Shown in pieces: positions 4,010-53,523 of a stretch of DNA of 64,000 nucleotides. Positions within the stretch are counted from its first letter, which is position 1; every line of letters begins with the position of its first letter. A program made the position numbers and the translations under genes. The stretch spans positions 133,905-197,904 of the forward strand of contig CAWFWJ010000005.1 of assembly GCA_963819545.1 (NCBI GenBank), read 5' to 3'. Below the pieces are notes generated by a model that did no database searches, was not told the DNA's origin, and worked only from the letters and a program-made list of their open reading frames with translations. The DNA is from an uncultured Gammaproteobacteria bacterium. GTDB taxonomy: Bacteria; Pseudomonadota; Gammaproteobacteria; Steroidobacterales; Steroidobacteraceae.

Positions 4010-4763
4010 TCAGACCCACTTCCAGCATTGCACGGTGCCGACGGGTTCTCTGGTCGCAAGTGCCGCAACGAATTCCTTGGTGGGTGCCGCAATCGGTATC
4101 ACGCGGTTGCCGGCCTCAACACTGACATGCACGGAACCGATGCCCAATCCATGCAGTTTCACCAGTGCTTCCTGCCGAACCCAGTGCTCCAGAAAACGGA
4201 GTTCACGCAAGGTCTCGGAAAGTGAAGCAAGCTCGTCGTACTCTTCGGGCGTCGAGCATGCGCCTGGAAAGCTGCAGTGCATCGGGGATGCTGCGGATTC
4301 GCTCGACGTCGACTCCGACTTCCCCATCGAATCGCACTGCAATGAGTGCGAGTGCATCTGAAGCCGAGGCGTTGAACCGAAAGCGATCCATTCCCATCGC
4401 AGGCGAAAGTGAAGGTTTACCGAAGGCAGAGTAAGTAAATTGCAGCGATTCCGGTGCACGGTCCGCATAGCGGCCGAGAATCTGCCGGAGCATACCGCGC
4501 GCGGCGACGAATCTGGCGCGATCCTGCGCAAATCGGAATCGGTCAGCGCGCGCGACTTCATCCTCGGCGAGCAGGCGTTCCAGTTCGGCGAGATGGGGAG
4601 GGGTCACATCCACGTCGAATGCCCATACGTGGGTTTCGCCGCCACTCAAGGCGGGCCACGAAGATGGAACGCTCCAGGTGTGGCTGCTCAGCGTGCCGCT
4701 GCGGTCCGCGATGGCCGCGTATTGCCGAAGTGGGCGATCTGTTCCGCGCGCAACTGATCGCAC
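4010..4763 (-). pseudogene. Sfp-type 4'-phosphopantetheinyl transferase, one frameshift near 4255-4262
   Basis: N-terminal part in frame 4203..4763 (HVWAFDV, ARADRFRF, FGKPSL, GVDVERI). C-terminal part in frame 4010..4561 (STPEEYDELASL, WVRQEALVKLHGLG). Start uncertain because it overlaps the upstream gene end. Confidence 0.8.
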
Positions 4764-11892: not shown

Positions 11893-12183
11893 TCAGTCGA
11901 CTGTGCGGCGGCCGCGCGACTTTCGGCGCTGGCCGCCGGCATACCAGGCGGCCCGTTCCTGCCGTACTTGAAGCGGCGGTCTTGTTCGTCCTCGCGCCGG
12001 TCGACGTACTTCTTGAAGCGGCAGCGGCACTTTGTCGGCATCGTGCAATTGGGCATCGGCAGCGGCGGGGCGTGGTCGGCGAGGATCCGCACGCCTTCCA
12101 GCGCGCCGACGGCGCCGCAGCACTTGTGCCGGCGTCGCAATCGTGACGGCCGGGAATTTCTTAGCTTGCGGCCATGGCCATAA
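11893..12183 (-). pseudogene. small Cys-rich protein, paralogue of 47287..47598 (frame-disrupted, ends uncertain)
   Basis: Frame 11604..12425 reads HKCCGAVGALEGVRILADHAPPLPMPNCTMPTKCRCRFKKYVDRR. A neighbouring frame reads KKFPAVTIATPA. ATGGCCATGGCC at 12183 follows directly after a terminator. Confidence 0.4.
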
Positions 12184-12207: not shown

Positions 12208-12857
12208 CCATTCCCCAGCGGAGCATTCCCATCTTGTTCTTCTGACGCCTTCCCCCCCTTCGATTCGATCGCGATGACGGCGCAAAGCGCCGGCTGCGCG
12301 GCCCACGAGTGTCGTGGCCGCGACGATCCGTCACCGCAGTAATTCCGTGGATTGAAGCAACGTCGCAAACTCCATGGCCGGTTACTGGACAGCGATCCTG
12401 TTCGGTAACCCGGCAGTCTTCCCATTGCGGGGAGACCCGTGGCTTTGCGACCCCGCCTCGCAGCGGGTGTGCCGTTTCGTCAGACGATGTCGTCTGTTCG
12501 GAAGTAATCCTAACATCGCGTCGCCATTGAGCGACAACGGACATCACAATAATCGCGGACAGCAGCATCGCAGGCCTGATGATTTCTCAAGAATTTCGCG
12601 GTATGTCCCCTGGCGTGACGCGGTTCTCAGTTTGGCATGCGAGCTATGTACTAGACTCGGGCCTGCACCAAGGGCAAACCCATCGAAAGGTGGGGACGCA
12701 AAGCTTCCGGGCTAAAGACTCTTCGCGAGTCCATGCCAGCGGGGTTGCCGGCAAGAGAGGCGCGCTGAATCGCAGCAATTCGCTCGCTCCGCGCATCGAT
12801 TGTCGTCAATGACCGACCAGCGGCGGCTGACGAGTTCCCATCCGCCCGATAGGTTTG

Positions 12858-13722: not shown

Positions 13723-14376
13723 ATGCGGATTTTACCGCTGGTACTCACGCTGTGCGTCGCTTTTCTGTTCACGGGCTGCCTGGGTTCGGGCGGAGGCAGC
13801 AGCCAAAATGGAGCCCGCGTTCGCCCGCAGGAAGGCAATCAGCCGCCGACCATTACGGGATCGCCAGCGCCCAGCATCCTCGAGGGTGAGACCTATGAAT
13901 TCACGCCGGCGGCCACAGATCCCGACGGCGACACACTCAAATTCCAGATTGCCGGAAAACCGGACTGGGCGAACTTCGAGCCGGCCACCGGCCGGCTCTG
14001 GGGGACGCCGGACGCAGGTGACGCAGGAAACTTTGCGAATATCCGGATTTCGGTGGCAGATGGAAAGGTCTCGGTCGCGCTGAATGCTTTCGGCATAGCG
14101 GTCAACACGGTGGCTTCGGGCTCGGCAACCCTTTCCTGGAATCCACCGACCCAAAACGCCGATGGGTCGAACCTGACCAATCTGGTGGGTTACCGGATCT
14201 ACTACGGCCGCAGCGCCACAGCGCTCACTCAGTCGATCGTCATAAACAATCCCGGCTTGACCCGGTATGTGGTTGAGAACCTGTCGCCCGCGATGTGGCA
14301 CTTCACGATGACTTCGGTGAACGCGAAGGGCACGGAAAGCAACAGGTCGCCGAAGGTCAGCAAGACGATCAGCTGA
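13723..14376 (+). CDS. lipoprotein with Ig-like plus fibronectin-III-like domain, paralogue 2
   Basis: Intact 217-aa ORF. Lipobox LFTGC. ILEGETYEFTPAATDPDGDTLKFQIAGKPDWANFEPATGRLWGTP. SATLSWNPPTQNADGSNLTNLVGYRIYYG. Confidence 0.8.
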   Translation: MRILPLVLTLCVAFLFTGCLGSGGGSSQNGARVRPQEGNQPPTITGSPAPSILEGETYEFTPAATDPDGDTLKFQIAGKPDWANFEPATGRLWGTPDAGDAGNFANIRISVADGKVSVALNAFGIAVNTVASGSATLSWNPPTQNADGSNLTNLVGYRIYYGRSATALTQSIVINNPGLTRYVVENLSPAMWHFTMTSVNAKGTESNRSPKVSKTIS

Positions 14377-15293: not shown

Positions 15294-16714
15294 ATGAACG
15301 AACCGATCGTATTCAAGCGCAGCGTCCTGATCGGACAGCTCGTCCTCATCCAGCTTCTGGTGCCGCCCCTGGTCGCCATCGGCACGCTGTATGGCCTGAC
15401 AGTCCTTTACGACGTTAGGTTCGACAGCGAGTTCCGCATGCTCGCGGTCCTGGTCGCGCTCCTGTCGCCCACCGTCATGAAGCGTCCGCAGGTCAGCACG
15501 CTGACCGATCATCCCGCGCTGGGGCTCGATCGCGGTCAGCCTGATCATGCGCTGGCTTGTCCTGCTCGCCATCCTGTTTGCCATCGGCTACGCGACCAAG
15601 ACATCCACGCGAATTTCCCGCCGCGTCGTCCTGACCTGGGCCATGGTGACCCCGATTCCGCTGATATTCGTCAGCCTCGCGTTCAACGAGATTCGTGCGG
15701 CAATTCATGCTCGCGCCGAGCAACGCTCGCGTCGGCGGTCGTCGCCGGTTACAACGACGTCAGCCTGGCACTGGTCGAGCGCATCCAGGCGGACCCGGGG
15801 CTCGGCATCCGGGTCACCGGGTTTTTTGACGACCGGAGCGCCGAGCGCCTCGGGCTTGCCGGTCGGCAAGGAGTTGCTCGGCGGCCTCTCGGACCTGGCG
15901 GCGTTACGTCAACTCGCAGAAGGATCGACCTTATCTTCATCGCCCTGCCGATGCGGCAGGTGCAGCGTGTCGTGGATCTGCTTGGACGAGCTTCGCGATA
16001 CGACGGCTTCGATTTATTTCGTGCCCGACATATTCGTCATGGACCTGATTCAGTCGCGCACGGCGGAGATTTCCGGAATTCCGATCGTCGCGATGTGCGA
16101 GACGCCCTTCCAGGGCACACGCGGGCTGGTCAAGCGCACTGATGGATCTCGGCATCAGCCTGCTCGCCCTGGTGCTTTTGCGCCGTTCCTGCTGCTGGTG
16201 GCGCTCCTCATCAAGCTGGGCTCGCCGGGTCCGGCGATTTTCAGGCAGCGCCGTTACGGGCTCGACGGCCAGATCATCGACGTGTACAAGTTCCGCACGA
16301 TGACTGTCGTCGAGGACGGCCCGCAAATTCAGCAGGTCACGCGTAACGATCCGCGCGTCACGCCGATCGGACGCTTCCTGCGGCGATACTCGATCGACGA
16401 ACTGCCCCAGCTATTCAATGTGCTTGCCGGAAGCATGAGCCTGGTCGGGCCCGCGCCCCCACGCCGTGGCGCATAATGAGGAGTATCGCGGGCTCATCAA
16501 GGGCTACATGGTGCGCCACAAGGTGCTGCCCGGCATTACGGGACTCGCCCAGGTCAATGGTTGCCGCGGCGAAACCAGCCGGCTTGAAGACATGAAGGCG
16601 CGGATCGAATACGACCTCGACTACCTCCGGCAATGGACGCCGTCACTGGATCTCAAGATCCTGTTCAAGACGGCAATCCAGGTCGTTGCGCGATCGCAAA
16701 GCCTATTGACGTAG
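15294..16714 (+). pseudogene. undecaprenyl-phosphate hexose-1-phosphate transferase (WcaJ/EPS sugar transferase family), frameshifted
   Basis: N-terminal TM segments, central [34 protein letters not shown]-terminal catalytic domain [43 protein letters not shown] and LPGITGLAQVNG, over three frames. Confidence 0.8.
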
Positions 16715-46003: not shown

Positions 46004-47219
46004 ATGTCACGAAACCAGAAAGGCGCAGCAGATCAATAAGTTAAGAATTGCTGTCGTTGCGGCCTGTCCGTTTCCCGTGCCGCGAGGCACTCCCATACGC
46101 ATCCTGCGGCTGGCGGAGGCCGATTGCCGACCGTGGGCACGAGGTCCACGTCGCGACCTACCACCTCGGCTCTGGACCGGTGGCGCCCAACGTCCACGTT
46201 CACCGAATCGGCGACGTGCCGTTCGTACCGCAAGCTCGGCCCGGGTCCGACCTCGCAGAAGCTGCTCCGGGTCGATCCGGCACTGACCCTGCTGCTGCGC
46301 AGGCTCCTTCGCAGCCGATCGTTTGACATTATCCATGCCCACCACTTCGAGGGCCTCCTGGTCGGCGCGGCCGCGCGAGTCGGGCTCGACGTACCGCTGG
46401 TGTTCGACGCCCACACGCTGCTGATGTCGGAATTGCCCTACTACTCGCTCGGGCCTGCCGGCGTCAGCCAAAGCGGGCATGGGCCGATGGATGGATCGCT
46501 GGATGCCGCGGTCTCGCCGAGCACACGGTCTGCGTGACGGAGACGATTCGGGACAAGCTGGTCGAGCAGGCGGGCATGGATCCGGGCAAGGTCTCGGTCG
46601 TCGCGAATGGCACCGAGGTCGATCACTTCGACCCGGCAAGAGCCAGGACCGACGCAGGCCCTTGGACGGCAAGACGCTGATTTTCACGGGAAACCTGGCC
46701 GAGTATCAGGGCATCGATCTGATGCTAAAGGCTTTCCGACATGTCGTTGCCCGCGTGACCGATGCACGCCTCGTGATTGCCACGGACTCGTCGTTTGCAC
46801 CCTACGAAGACCTCGCGCGCGAACTGGGGATTCGCGATCGGATCGACCTGATCGAGTCGCCAGCCTTTGGCGAGTCTGCCGGGATTGCTGGCGGGCGCGG
46901 ATATCGCCCTCAATCCACGGACAAATTGCGATGGCGTGCCCGTCAAGCTCCTGAACTACATGGCGGCCGCCCGGCCGGTGGTTTCGTTCGACTCGGCGGC
47001 GCCCGGGCGTGACGACATGGCCGGACCGGCTGGCTGGTCGAGAGCGGCAACGTCGAAGCGTTCGCCGACGGAATCGTAGGACTCCTACAAGACTCCGCGT
47101 CGAGCGGAGGAGATTGGCCGGGCGGCGAGGGATTATGTCATCGAGAATTTGCAGCTGGCCGAAGGCTGCGGAGCACTGCGAGCGAATTGTATCGGGACCT
47201 TCGGAGTCGTATGACATAA
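46004..47219 (+). pseudogene. family 4 (GT-B) glycosyltransferase, frameshifted
   Basis: LRIAVVAACPFPVPRGTPIRILRLAEA, IIHAHHFEGLLVGAAA, LIFTGNLAEYQGIDLMLKAF, LNPRTNCDGVPVKLLNYMAAARPVV. Likely end ELYRDLRSRMT with TAA 47217-47219. Confidence 0.65.
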
Positions 47220-47227
47220 CAAAGCTG

Positions 47228-47245
47228 TTGGACAATATTCCGCAC
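47228..47245 (+). promoter_or_regulatory. weak sigma-54 (-24/-12)-like promoter candidate
   Basis: TTGGACAATATTCCGCA: GG (47230-31) and GC (47242-43) at the canonical GG-N10-GC spacing, about 45 nt upstream of ATG 47287. Other consensus positions are poor. Confidence 0.25.
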
Positions 47246-47286
47246 GATGCCGTTAAGATGCGCTCAGGCACACAGGAGGTGTGGCC

Positions 47287-47598
47287 ATGGGCTTCAATCT
47301 CTCCAACTGGTTCCTGCGCAAGAGGATCGACGCGCAGGTGCGCAAGTCCGGCCGGCCGATGGAGCATCGCCGGGTCGTCAATCCCTATCACGCGGTGAGC
47401 ATCGAGCCCGGCTCGAAGTGCTGCGATGATGCCGGCAAGCTCGAAGGCCGGCGTTTCCTCGCATCCACTGCGCCGATGCTGCCGCTGCCCGGTTGCACGT
47501 CCGCCACCTGCCAGTGCCGCTACACGCACTACAACGACCGCCGCAGCGACGCGCGACCGGCGCGTCCTGACGCACACATCCGTACGCCCACAAAATGA
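47287..47598 (+). CDS. small Cys-rich protein of unknown function
   Basis: Intact ORF. AGGAGG lies 8 nt before ATG 47287. HAVSIEPGSKCCDDAGKLEGRRFLASTAPMLPLPGCTSATCQCRYTHYNDRR. A paralogous fragment is at 11893..12183(-). Confidence 0.6.
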   Translation: MGFNLSNWFLRKRIDAQVRKSGRPMEHRRVVNPYHAVSIEPGSKCCDDAGKLEGRRFLASTAPMLPLPGCTSATCQCRYTHYNDRRSDARPARPDAHIRTPTK

Positions 47599-47638
47599 GC
47601 GACAGGCGCATGACAGGCGGCGGCCGCCGCATGACCGA

Positions 47639-48929
<1,291 letters not shown>

Positions 48930-48933
<4 letters not shown>

Positions 48934-49545
48934 GGCCGCGGCTCCGTGGTGCCGCCTTCGAGCGTCGCGATGGCCTCGAGCTTGGCCTCGGCGCGCTCGA
49001 GTTCGCGCCGCAGCCGATCCTTCTCGGCCGATCTCGGCCTGCAGCCGCCGGTTGAGGTCGGCGATCCGGTCAGTCGGTCTGAGTTCGAATGGCTGCCGCT
49101 GCGCAGCGTCTCGTTCTCGCGCGTGAGTGCGAGCCGCGCGTCGAGGTCGCGGACCATCAGTTCGGCCAGCGCCCGCTCCGAGGGCAGCAGGGTCTCCGGC
49201 GTCGCCAGCGCTTCGCCGAGCAGCGCCCGGGCGCCGGCCGGGTCGCTCGCGGCATGGCCCGGCACGGCCAGCACGAAGGCGTAGCGCAGGCGTTTGCTGG
49301 GTCGAGGGATCGGCGAGGTAGGCGCTCGCGCGTCGCCTCGAGGATCTCGGCCTGCTCGGCCGCGCCGCCGCGCCCCAGCCGGTCGAGCGTCGCGAGAGTA
49401 GCCGGCGACGATCTGGCCGTCGTCGGTGAGCGAGACCGGGGTCGTGTCCTTGCGCTTCTTGAGGCCGCGACCAGTCGTCCACGTTCTTGCAGCCCGCGAC
49501 GAGGCCGGCGGCGAGGAGCAGACGAGCAGGCGATGAGACGCTCAT
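48930..49545 (-). pseudogene. lipoprotein located between the kinase and regulator genes (QseG/YfhG-like position), frameshifted
   Basis: MSVSSPARLLLAAGLVAGC lipobox at ATG 49545 (ATGA overlap with the kinase stop). Coiled-coil EKDRLRRELERAEAKLEAIATLE near the C-terminus. The call rests mainly on gene order. Confidence 0.45.
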
Positions 49546-50991
49546 GCCGCATGGGCGGACTCCCGTCGCGTCGCGGCCGGCAGGCGGATGCGCAGGTGCG
49601 CGCCCGGGAACTGGCCGGTGACGATCTCGACGGTTCCGCCGTGGGCCTCGACGAATTCGCGCACGACCGAAAGGCCGATGCCCGTGCCCTTGAGCGGGCC
49701 GCCCTGCGGCGTCGTTGCCGGAATAGAACGCGTCGAACACCTTGTCGCGCTCGTCGGCGTCGATGCCGGGGCCGGTGTCGGCGAAGTCGATGACGGTCGT
49801 CGCGCCGTCCGGATAGGCATGCAGGTGGATCGTGCCGCCGCGCGGCGTGAACTTGAGCGCATTCGACAGCAGGTTCTCGAGCACGAGCTTGAGCTTCGCC
49901 CGGTCGGCGACGAGGTGCAGCTCGGCGACGTGCAGGTCGAGCGTGAGGTTGCGCGCCGCCATCGCGAGACGCTGGCTGTCGACCACGGTGCCGACCAGCG
50001 AGCCCAGGCGGAACGAGGTCAGCTCGACGCTGCTCGCGCGCGACTTCCAGGCGCTGTAGGAGAGCAGGTTCTCGATCAGCTGCTGCAGGCGCAATCGCGT
50101 TCTCGCGCAGGATCGAGGCGACCTCGCGCTGGTTCTCGTCGATCGGGCCGACGGCGCCGTCGAGCAGGAGATCGGTGCCCTCGCGGATGTTCGCGAGCGG
50201 CGTCTTGAGCTCGTGCGACATGTGCCGCAGGAAGCGGTTGCGCTCGAGCGCGATGTCGAGGAGCCGGGTGCGCAGCCATTCGAGCTGGCGGCCGAGCGCG
50301 GCGAGGTCGGCCGGGCCGCTGATCGCGATCGCATGCGAGAACGCGCCGCGGCCGAGGTCGCTGATCGCGCGATCGATGGCACGGAGCGGCCGCAGCACGT
50401 AGAACCAGAAGATGCCGGCGATGCGCGAGTGCGGCCGGCACCAGCGCCATGATCGCCCACAGCAGGCCCTGCTGGGTCGCGCTCGCCTCGCGCTCGACCT
50501 GGCTTAGGCGCGCGTCGATGCCGAGGCGGGCCTGCTCGGCGAGCCCGTTGGCCTCGACGCCGAGCGACGCTGAAGCGCGCTCACGACGGGTCGAGGCGGG
50601 CGCTCGGCGGCGGCCGGCGTGGACCAGGCTGACGGCGTGGCGTCGCCAGCCTCGCGTACCTGGGCGATGTCGGGCTCCGGCACGTAGTCGGCGAGCTTGC
50701 TCGAGCGTGCGGCTGAAGGCTGCGTAGTTCGAATCGAAGGCCGTGGCGAGCGCGCGGGTCGTTCAGCACGCGATAGAGGTTCGCGGCGCGCTCCATCGCG
50801 GCGATGTTCTGGAACAGGACCTGGGTGTGCTGGGTGAGCGCGATGCTGTCCCGCACCAGCACGTCGCTGGTGCGCGAGAGCTGGCGCAACTGCACGCCGC
50901 CGTAGACGAGCGCCGCCGTCAGCGGCAGCACGATCAGGAGGAGGGCCGCCGACAGCAGCCCGCTCAGGGACTGTGGGCGGATCGTGGTCAT
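49542..50991 (-). pseudogene. glrK: sensor histidine kinase GlrK (QseE)-like, frameshifted
   Basis: MTTIRPQSLSGLLSAALLLIVLPLTAALV...NIAAMERAANLYRVLNDP. H-box HMSHELKTPLANIREG. N/G boxes LENLLSNALKFTP, DTGPGIDADERDKVFDAFY, GTGIGLSVVREFVEAHGG. Confidence 0.7.
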
Positions 50992-53065: not shown

Positions 53066-53419
53066 TGATCAGCTCTGGTTTTCGGTGAGCCGGACGCGCC
53101 GTCCATCGCGGATATGCTGGATGGTCAGACTCTCGTTGCGCCCGCGCTCATCGTCTACGAGGTCGGCAATACCTGCTGGAAGAAGTGCCGGCGGGACCCC
53201 GCGTCGGCGGCCAATCTGCGCCAGGCCTTTGCCGACATGCTGCGCCTCGAAATCCAGCTGCTGGCAATCGAGCCGGCGCAGGTGCTTGTACTGGCGGAAA
53301 AAAGTGAAATCACGTTCTACGATGCCGCCTACTTATGGCTCGCCGATCGCCTGAAGGCCCGATTGGTGACGCTCGACCGCCGTCTCGAGCAATTGTTCAA
53401 GGCATCGTCCGCACGCTGA
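53066..53419 (+). pseudogene. vapC: PIN-domain VapC-like toxin remnant (5' end disrupted)
   Basis: GTG 53066 gives VFLI, then a frame change to ALVFGEPDAPSIADMLDGQTLVAPALIVYEVGN...ITFYDAAYLWLADRLKARLVTLD. The region around the first catalytic Asp is lost. No antitoxin ORF fits in the 24 nt upstream. Confidence 0.6.
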
Positions 53420-53442
53420 GTTACAATCCGCGCCCTTTCATT

Positions 53443-53523
53443 CTGAAGGGGACGTTCACCTTTAAAGGAAACGATCACTTTCAGCGACTAGAGCGTTCCC
53501 GTAAAGGTGAACGTCCCCTTCAG
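53443..53523. repeat. REP-like inverted repeat pair (site 1)
   Basis: CTGAAGGGGACGTTCACCTT (53443-53462) and its inverse AAGGTGAACGTCCCCTTCAG (53504-53523). A degenerate direct copy is at 53464-53481. Confidence 0.85.

Follow-up and report, generated by a model that had tools for sequence, protein, structure and literature searches.

The second messenger cyclic dimeric guanosine monophosphate (c-di-GMP) governs the bacterial switch from the motile to the biofilm mode of life, yet the catalogue of its output components is far from complete, most of all for uncultured bacteria of soils and sediments. Among the described systems, the Vc2 riboswitch in the tfoY leader of Vibrio cholerae controls the regulator TfoY, and small basic zinc-finger proteins of the Ros/MucR type (PF05443) regulate exopolysaccharide (EPS) synthesis in Agrobacterium and Sinorhizobium. 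Arginine-rich c-di-GMP motifs are known from the I-site of GGDEF proteins (RxxD), from BldD (RxD-x8-RxxD) and from the arginine-rich extension of Cle, while the enterobacterial GlrK(QseE)-YfhG(QseG)-GlrR(QseF) module has glmY as its sigma-54 target. Here we describe a family of small proteins with conserved cysteines and an arginine-rich tail, two members of which are encoded in a stretch of 64,000 nucleotides (nt) from an uncultured gammaproteobacterium of the Steroidobacteraceae (contig CAWFWJ010000005.1, positions 133,905 to 197,904; hereafter the window). The two genes, designated copy 1 (47287-47641, plus strand) and copy 2 (12181-11893, minus strand), lie ~35 kb apart around an EPS locus. 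We give about an even chance to the reading that they specify paralogous cytoplasmic, probably zinc-binding, basic mini-regulators in a c-di-GMP and surface-polymer programme.

The decisive feature, missed when the DNA was inspected without database searches (the sequence-only reading), is a c-di-GMP-class riboswitch directly before copy 2. An aptamer of the c-di-GMP-I class occupies 12482-12400 of the minus strand; its best fit is to the GGC variant (RF03167), with 60.8 bits where the gathering score is 59 and, over the whole window, E 7e-12. It covers model positions 1-80 of 80, has the orientation of copy 2 and is separated from the copy 2 ATG by ~220 nt that contain no open reading frame (ORF). 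A canonical c-di-GMP-I aptamer (RF01051; 79.8 bits against a gathering score of 35) lies at 12663-12752 of the plus strand, divergent from the first, and leads into an operon for a He_PIG/FN3 lipoprotein (He_PIG/fn3 domains at 13723-14373), an ACBP and a priming transferase (CoA_binding_3 and Bac_transf domains at 15294-16473). Both aptamers are full-length matches at or above the gathering score and belong to the c-di-GMP-I class (Rfam clan CL00126). They fall within the ~650-nt gap that separates copy 2 from the first lipoprotein gene, and this gap is thus accounted for by two back-to-back aptamers.

On the minus strand the first aptamer is followed by a conserved linker without an ORF (12399-12210), whose segment GTAACCGG is complementary to the 3′ half of the aptamer, the alternative pairing appearing in folds. 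The linker ends at a GC-rich hairpin of 10 pairs with a 4-nt loop and a T-run (12209-12182), detected in a terminator scan as a candidate expression-platform terminator. This hairpin abuts the start codon of copy 2, with ATGGCCATGGCC coming next, so that the aptamer stands in the 5′ leader of the gene together with an expression platform. Over five loci the leader has a mean column identity of 82% and is more conserved than the coding N-terminus, which diverges; the terminator stem is invariant, its loop is variable and the hairpin is present in every minimum free energy fold. In the metagenome runs X1, X2, X4 and X5 the contig depth over 12435-12480 of the window was 5-10x that of the flanks, with many different continuations; such depth over the 5′ half of the aptamer implies that these sediment communities hold many loci with aptamers of this kind.

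The stop codon of copy 2 is located at 11895-11893. Intact orthologues of 92-93 amino acids (aa) begin directly after the hairpin and T-run, and divergent ones open right past the T-run (MTGRK..., MPVKP..., MATPKK...). In one orthologous locus (L106) the frame of the upstream ATG does not join the domain, and the alignment of another (L108) also puts the start codon after the T-run. The start codon of copy 2 is therefore the ATG at 12181 or the one at 12175, with the hairpin as an RNA element in front of it. Some gene callers run the ORF of copy 2-type genes upstream through the hairpin, yielding "MFRWGMGGGYGRPFF". A longer N-terminal reading of copy 2 (MGMLRWGMGGGYGRPFF...) was rejected, since the stretch in question is the terminator hairpin, conserved as RNA and out of frame in L106.

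The organization resembles the Vc2-tfoY and other GEMM-I leaders (RF01051, RF03167) in that a c-di-GMP-I-class aptamer, here above the Rfam gathering threshold, is part of the 5′ leader of one small gene for a presumed regulator, and in that the expression platform comprises an intrinsic terminator. It differs from Vc2-tfoY in several respects: the copy 2 product has no relationship to TfoX/TfoY, the GGC-variant model gives the best fit to its aptamer, the terminator directly abuts the start codon, and two aptamers stand back to back for divergent transcription units. The layout is not confined to the window. It was found in all four orthologous loci compared (L105-L108), where the aptamer on the strand of the family gene ends 172-231 nt upstream of that gene and scores 60.9-63.7 bits, and the canonical one scores 76.8-81.1 bits. 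In each of them the divergent canonical aptamer fronts the He_PIG/FN3 lipoprotein-ACBP operon; a priming transferase gene (Bac_transf) then follows in three of the four, Poly_export in two, and in L105 a Wzz-type gene after it. The ACBP gene, at ~4300-4630 in each locus, comes after the riboswitch-controlled He_PIG lipoprotein gene, and in the three loci that carry a priming glycosyltransferase gene it lies between the two, as it does in the window. The genes downstream of the copy 2 orthologues vary (VWA, methyltransferase, SCO1, sulfotransferase), so the conserved cargo of the riboswitch is the one small gene.

The proteins behind these leaders belong to a large family. In an exhaustive phmmer search the representative clusters at the 50% identity level numbered 1,721 with E<=1e-3; with E<=1e-10 they numbered 384. 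A word-seeded profile search gathered 1,124 family clusters at the 90% level. Precomputed Pfam domains are absent throughout, and the few members with a source name read 'hypothetical protein'. Environmental Gammaproteobacteria carry the family widely, and it occurs also in cultivable Shewanella. Its proteins are small (~93-120 aa), with a compact core of ~55 residues and an isoelectric point of 9.9-11.3 in six of the seven members computed. In copy 1 numbering they follow the pattern (NPYH)AVSI-x5-6-C46-x9-R56-F-L58-x3-AP-x-LP66L-x2-C70-x4-C75-x-C77-RY-x-H81-x2-D84RR. Variation in the core takes the forms R-F/I-L, AP-x-LP-L/M and C-x4-5-C-x-C-R-Y/F. The core is followed by a tail with RR, often W-x-G-x-ERR, and then GRRxxD at the very C-terminus. 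C70, C75, C77, L58, P66 and D84 are invariant, and C46, R56, Y79, H81 and R85R86 nearly so, H81 being replaced by K in the copy-2 subfamily.

The cysteine pattern C-x19-30-C-x3-6-C-x-C was kept in 409 of the 415 members collected, a check that the sequence-only reading had asked of further homologues. Its count of five conserved cysteines was not borne out: four are conserved family-wide (C46, C70, C75 and C77), and the CC doublet, by its first cysteine, is present in just 164 of 415. The N-terminus differs by subfamily, from an amphipathic helix in the copy-1 group to almost nothing in the copy-2 group, and other subfamilies have a true N-terminal transmembrane helix followed by basic residues, e.g. 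Shewanella khirikhana WP_126165825.1. Because the family lacks a signal peptide, and because a basic stretch follows the helix in the transmembrane members, the cysteine domain is predicted to be cytoplasmic. One member (P0074) carries the domain in duplicate.

In line with the earlier statement that the proteins fit no named domain, the window copies matched nothing at E<=1 in Pfam and NCBIfam scans, and ten intact homologues gave chance-level matches alone (E>=0.1). Domains of the PilZ, Ros/MucR and DksA-TraR types had no Pfam matches in either set. Against PDB sequences the best match of the family profile was YcgJ (1xxl), with E 0.17 and regarded as chance. This match, probably fortuitous, pairs profile residues ~47-95 with the class I S-adenosylmethionine methyltransferase motif 'vrF..g.Ae.LPf.d..FD.v.cryalHh..D'. 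An AlphaFold2 model has three short strands and one short helix starting just past C46. It is confident over residues 31-80 (block-mean pLDDT 87-91), but not in the N-terminal helix or in the tail, whose block means are 59-75. Foldseek found no match of the model in the PDB (best E 4.5, TM 0.16), and literature searches retrieved no paper on this protein family. The family is undescribed in Pfam, NCBIfam or PDB; the riboswitch class is already known.

The four conserved ligand residues sit in a small, confidently modelled core, as in Cys4 mini-domains of the zinc ribbon or treble-clef kind, and the coordination of one zinc ion by them is most likely. The earlier proposal of a "metal or redox site" is retained as a prediction, with four cysteines instead of five. 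As a functional analogy only, the proteins can be compared with Ros/MucR, being likewise small, basic, presumably zinc-binding and tied to EPS genes. Ros/MucR proteins differ in having C2H2 or C3H ligands, against Cys4 with C-x-C here, and the family has no match to their Pfam model at E<=1.

Taken together, the proposed mechanism would be as follows. Both genes would be functional in the organism, the frame breaks seen in the window being assembly errors. Each protein would consist of a core with four zinc-holding cysteines and a disordered arginine-rich tail (DRR, RR, (W), E/QRR, GRRxxD) that would bind nucleic acid or a partner protein. Copy 2 would be the sole gene behind the c-di-GMP-I-class riboswitch with its terminator hairpin abutting the start codon, so that the abundance of its product would depend on the concentration of the dinucleotide signal in the cell. 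The second, divergent riboswitch of this intergenic region would serve the operon for the lipoprotein and the priming transferase within the EPS locus. Copy 1, at the opposite edge of that locus, would be expressed from its own sigma-70-like promoter beside a GlrK-GlrR-type two-component module. We infer from this setting that the family proteins are small regulators of a surface-polymer and adhesin programme.

Several points weigh against this view. The biochemical function of the family is a proposal, metal binding is deduced from the sequence alone, and no similarity to any DNA-, RNA- or nucleotide-binding domain was detectable in Pfam, NCBIfam, PDB or Foldseek searches. Many members, in Shewanella, in a metagenome-assembled genome (MAG) named 'Pseudomonadota bacterium' and elsewhere, have neighbours unrelated to EPS or c-di-GMP, and the surface-polymer link may hold for some lineages only. 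Since c-di-GMP aptamers are recurrent in the scanned loci of relatives and abundant in metagenome contigs, an aptamer that is simply nearby, within a few kb, carries little weight; an aptamer in the gene's own leader, found in the copy-2 subfamily only, is strong evidence for that subfamily. The terminator is kept in folds both with and without the aptamer enforced, and these folds favour neither an on nor an off direction for the copy 2 aptamer. Literature searches found nothing useful on the ligand of the GGC variant.

The tail admits a further, tentative interpretation, in which family members would themselves be receptors that recognise c-di-GMP or a related cyclic dinucleotide. The nucleotide would be clamped by the arginine-rich tail, a surface of the Cys4 core would serve dimerisation or output, and the copy 2 riboswitch would make a feed-forward loop. 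In 319 of the 415 members RRxx[D/N] lies at the C-terminus or no more than three residues from it, and the conserved DRR, RR, W-x-G-x-ERR and GRRxxD elements give the tail two to four RR motifs, a conserved tryptophan and a terminal RRxxD. The tail shares with the known arginine-rich c-di-GMP motifs the RR/RRxxD repeats, the conserved aromatic residue in a flexible segment and genomic links to c-di-GMP, here to c-di-GMP riboswitches and to a GGDEF-EAL gene (GGDEF and EAL domains were found in four of 72 immediate neighbours). The resemblance is one of short, low-complexity motifs with a different spacing and no homology. The tail is predicted to be disordered, and there is no sequence or fold similarity to known receptors, PilZ and other Pfam families being unmatched. 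It is conceivable, at the same low level of expectation, that a four-cysteine domain with an RRxxD tail constitutes a new class of cyclic-dinucleotide effector that would bind the dinucleotide sensed by the riboswitch, or a related one, and relay it to exopolysaccharide, lipoprotein and adhesin expression. If so, an RNA sensor, the variant c-di-GMP-I riboswitch of one paralogue, and a protein sensor would be wired in series.

A reading of the cysteines as an iron-sulfur cluster or a thiol redox switch seems unlikely. The protein would then sense the redox state or a metal, or handle a metal, and its location at the EPS locus would be no more than lineage-specific synteny. The four conserved cysteines, with a histidine in most subfamilies, would suit such a role, many members are found in contexts without EPS, and SCO1/SenC genes adjoin the copy-2 orthologues in two loci (L106 and L107). 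The riboswitch in the copy 2 leader, however, links expression to a dinucleotide signal and not to the redox state, and His81 is lost in that very subfamily. To our knowledge the spacing C-x23-C-x4-C-x-C fits no iron-sulfur motif, which we also count against this reading.

Copy 1 lies at the other end of the EPS locus. Around it the window encodes a GT1 domain (46479-47009), an AAA_lid_14 fragment (47642-48037) and a HisKA domain (49160-50398). The AAA_lid_14 fragment is part of the 3′ end of a GlrR/QseF-like sigma-54 activator gene (47639-48037, minus strand), at the position where relatives have a gene with Response_reg and Sigma54_activat domains. The sequence-only reading had placed copy 1 convergent with such an activator, and this holds both in the window, where the two stop codons coincide, and in many relatives. 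In Steroidobacteraceae MAGs the gene convergent with the copy 1 orthologue is, as a rule, one for a sigma-54 response regulator, preceded by genes for a histidine kinase and a ~200-aa protein, which is the GlrK-YfhG-GlrR gene order, and glycosyltransferase genes are found on the opposite side. The locus is thus like the enterobacterial module in having a kinase, a ~200-aa protein and a sigma-54 activator in the same order beside copy 1. It is unlike it in that the neighbour is a convergent protein-coding gene, not a small RNA, and in that a conserved sigma-54 promoter is unsupported.

The region upstream of copy 1 (47211-47286, plus strand) contains a sigma-70-like site at 47211-47239 (ATGACA, 17 nt, AATATT; one found in the promoter scan against 0.1 expected), as well as the conserved TTGGACAA and TAAGAT boxes. 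The sigma-70-like boxes ATGACA, TTGGACA/TTGAACA and TAAGAT are retained in the upstream regions of copy 1 orthologues. It is quite improbable that copy 1 is, like glmY, the sigma-54-dependent output gene of the GlrK-GlrR module and the family a member of the GlrR regulon, even though its convergent adjacency to the activator gene is conserved in many Steroidobacteraceae loci and a TGG-N10-GC motif occurs upstream of copy 1 itself and of four among the ten close orthologues compared (L001, L006, L011, L015). Of the two elements of that motif, the -24 GG is GA in L003, L012, L013 and L016, and the -12 GC is absent from L003, L005, L007, L008 and L009 among the ten, whereas a TAAGAT-like -10 box is kept in all ten. 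The genes are moreover convergent, not divergent, and in L001 two other genes intervene. A sigma-54 promoter for copy 1 was accordingly rejected, GG-N10-GC not being conserved and the sigma-70-like boxes being retained.

An Rfam scan gave no element upstream of copy 1. A small conserved hairpin is located at the start of the gene (47268-47289; GGC-A-CACA / TGTG-GCC), with the AGGAGG Shine-Dalgarno sequence in its loop and a 3′ arm that reaches and partly overlaps the ATG. It is kept in the closest orthologues (L001, L003, L005, L006, L015) and, with small changes, in L007. GGC-variant c-di-GMP-I aptamers were noted 5-6 kb downstream of three copy-1 orthologues (L007:11995-12071, L009:11056-11131, L014:11651-11726), beyond epimerase and kinase-like genes; the equivalent position of the window holds none above the gathering score.

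The reading frames of both genes are interrupted in the window. A family hidden Markov model (HMM) made from 50 members matched the six-frame translation at copy 1 with E 2.7e-39 and at copy 2 with E 4.1e-15. Copy 1 begins at 47287, the start of an ORF with a strong AGGAGG Shine-Dalgarno sequence, and was reconstructed by three-frame reading against its homologues. The coding sequence runs in frame 1 to ~47545, in frame 2 to ~47578 and in frame 3 to the true stop, the TAG at 47639-47641, which gives a protein of ~117 aa. The 104-aa ORF at 47287-47598 had been taken as intact. Its start with the ribosome-binding site stands; the ORF is the frame-1 portion of a gene broken by two frame errors, and its end is out of frame with respect to the homologues. 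These have 115-117 aa, one of them (P0001, 117 aa) being 92% identical, and end in ...DRRxxRDRRV...HAHKMxDRRxGxGRRMTD. In the window this conserved tail is spread over the other two frames as RDRRVLTHT and then PYAHKMSDRRMTGGGRRMTD*.

Short-read-derived contigs of close relatives from four independent metagenomes have one base fewer at 47545 (47549 in one contig) and one fewer at 47578/47579. These gaps coincide with the two breaks, and no other consistent gaps occur over copy 1. Since the relatives are without exactly those two bases, copy 1 is a normal gene of ~117 aa in this lineage, and the window sequence holds two surplus bases, near 47545 and 47578.

The minus-strand paralogue, proposed earlier at about 11893-12183, was confirmed as a member of the same family at 11893-12181, encoding ~95 aa. 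It can be reconstructed as a protein, the point on which the earlier proposal had been made to depend, by three single-base corrections near 12169, 12128 and 11951, guided by intact orthologues (103 clusters with 54-85% identity and intact proteins of 92-113 aa). For one-by-one confirmation of these indels the contigs of relatives are too divergent and fragmentary. It is very improbable that the copies are decaying pseudogenes with real frame breaks, in spite of two and three breaks within ~300-350 bp each, some of them away from long homopolymers, since past every break another frame still codes for conserved residues and the contigs of relatives are without exactly the surplus bases of copy 1.

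That two copies bracket parts of the EPS locus, as the sequence-only reading had noticed, agrees with the situation in relatives, where one member of each subfamily is found on a single contig (P0030/P0332 on 337 kb, P0041/P0391 on 72 kb). A weak HMM match at 53089-53304, considered as a third copy, proved to be spurious, an alternative frame of a PIN-like gene. A PIN-domain (VapC-like) frame lies at 53080-53480 of the plus strand, upstream of REP-like repeats and typA.

The neighbourhoods of other family members were surveyed in a genome scan that reached only members with RV[VA]NPYH[ASC]V and in a metagenome scan that reached only those with NPYHAVSI, so that the locus sample and the neighbour tally are biased to such subfamilies. 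In 46 non-redundant loci from metagenomes, Bac_transf with CoA_binding_3 (five) and GGDEF with EAL (four) led the tally of 72 immediate neighbours. Two family genes (P0260 and P0274) are divergent from a cluster of Bac_transf, Poly_export, an unnamed ORF, chain-length-determinant-like, ParA-like and Wzx genes, with FN3 lipoprotein genes on the opposite side of P0260. In L039 and L046 a gene for a PKD-domain autotransporter adhesin comes after the family gene, and in L041 the family gene is convergent with a REC-GAF-GGDEF-EAL gene. In L072 and L098 the family gene is followed on its strand by a c-di-GMP-I aptamer and, past ~520 nt with no clear ORF, by a GGC-variant aptamer that precedes a He_PIG lipoprotein gene.

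The tandem aptamers of the latter two loci (L072:1135-1951, L098:4789-5473), one canonical and one GGC-variant, are ~520-650 nt apart with no convincing ORF between them, and the first of them may control a small RNA or a tiny ORF. In L017 (3562-6357) two same-strand paralogues of the family flank a glutamyl-tRNA synthetase gene and tRNA genes, and P0236 is also found beside a gltX-type gene, forming a third syntenic subgroup with no EPS link. The family gene seems to be solitary, no operon partner being conserved. The co-occurrence with EPS or GlrKR loci for which a survey had been suggested was thus found in this lineage and is often absent outside it.

For the biology of c-di-GMP signalling these findings have several implications. 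The family, with ~1,700 clusters at 50% identity, strongly conserved residues and no database description, is a good candidate for an as yet unknown player in the regulation of slime and surface properties. The sulfated-EPS locus of this bacterium gets a direct second-messenger input at its lipoprotein and priming-transferase operon through the plus-strand aptamer, and the GGC-variant aptamer with its conserved leader is a good substrate for settling the ligand of the variant. In each locus examined, the c-di-GMP-class riboswitch has the copy-2-type gene as its only cargo, and this, together with the strong conservation, makes the family a concrete and cheap target of study, its proteins having 93-117 aa, four cysteines and a defined tail motif.

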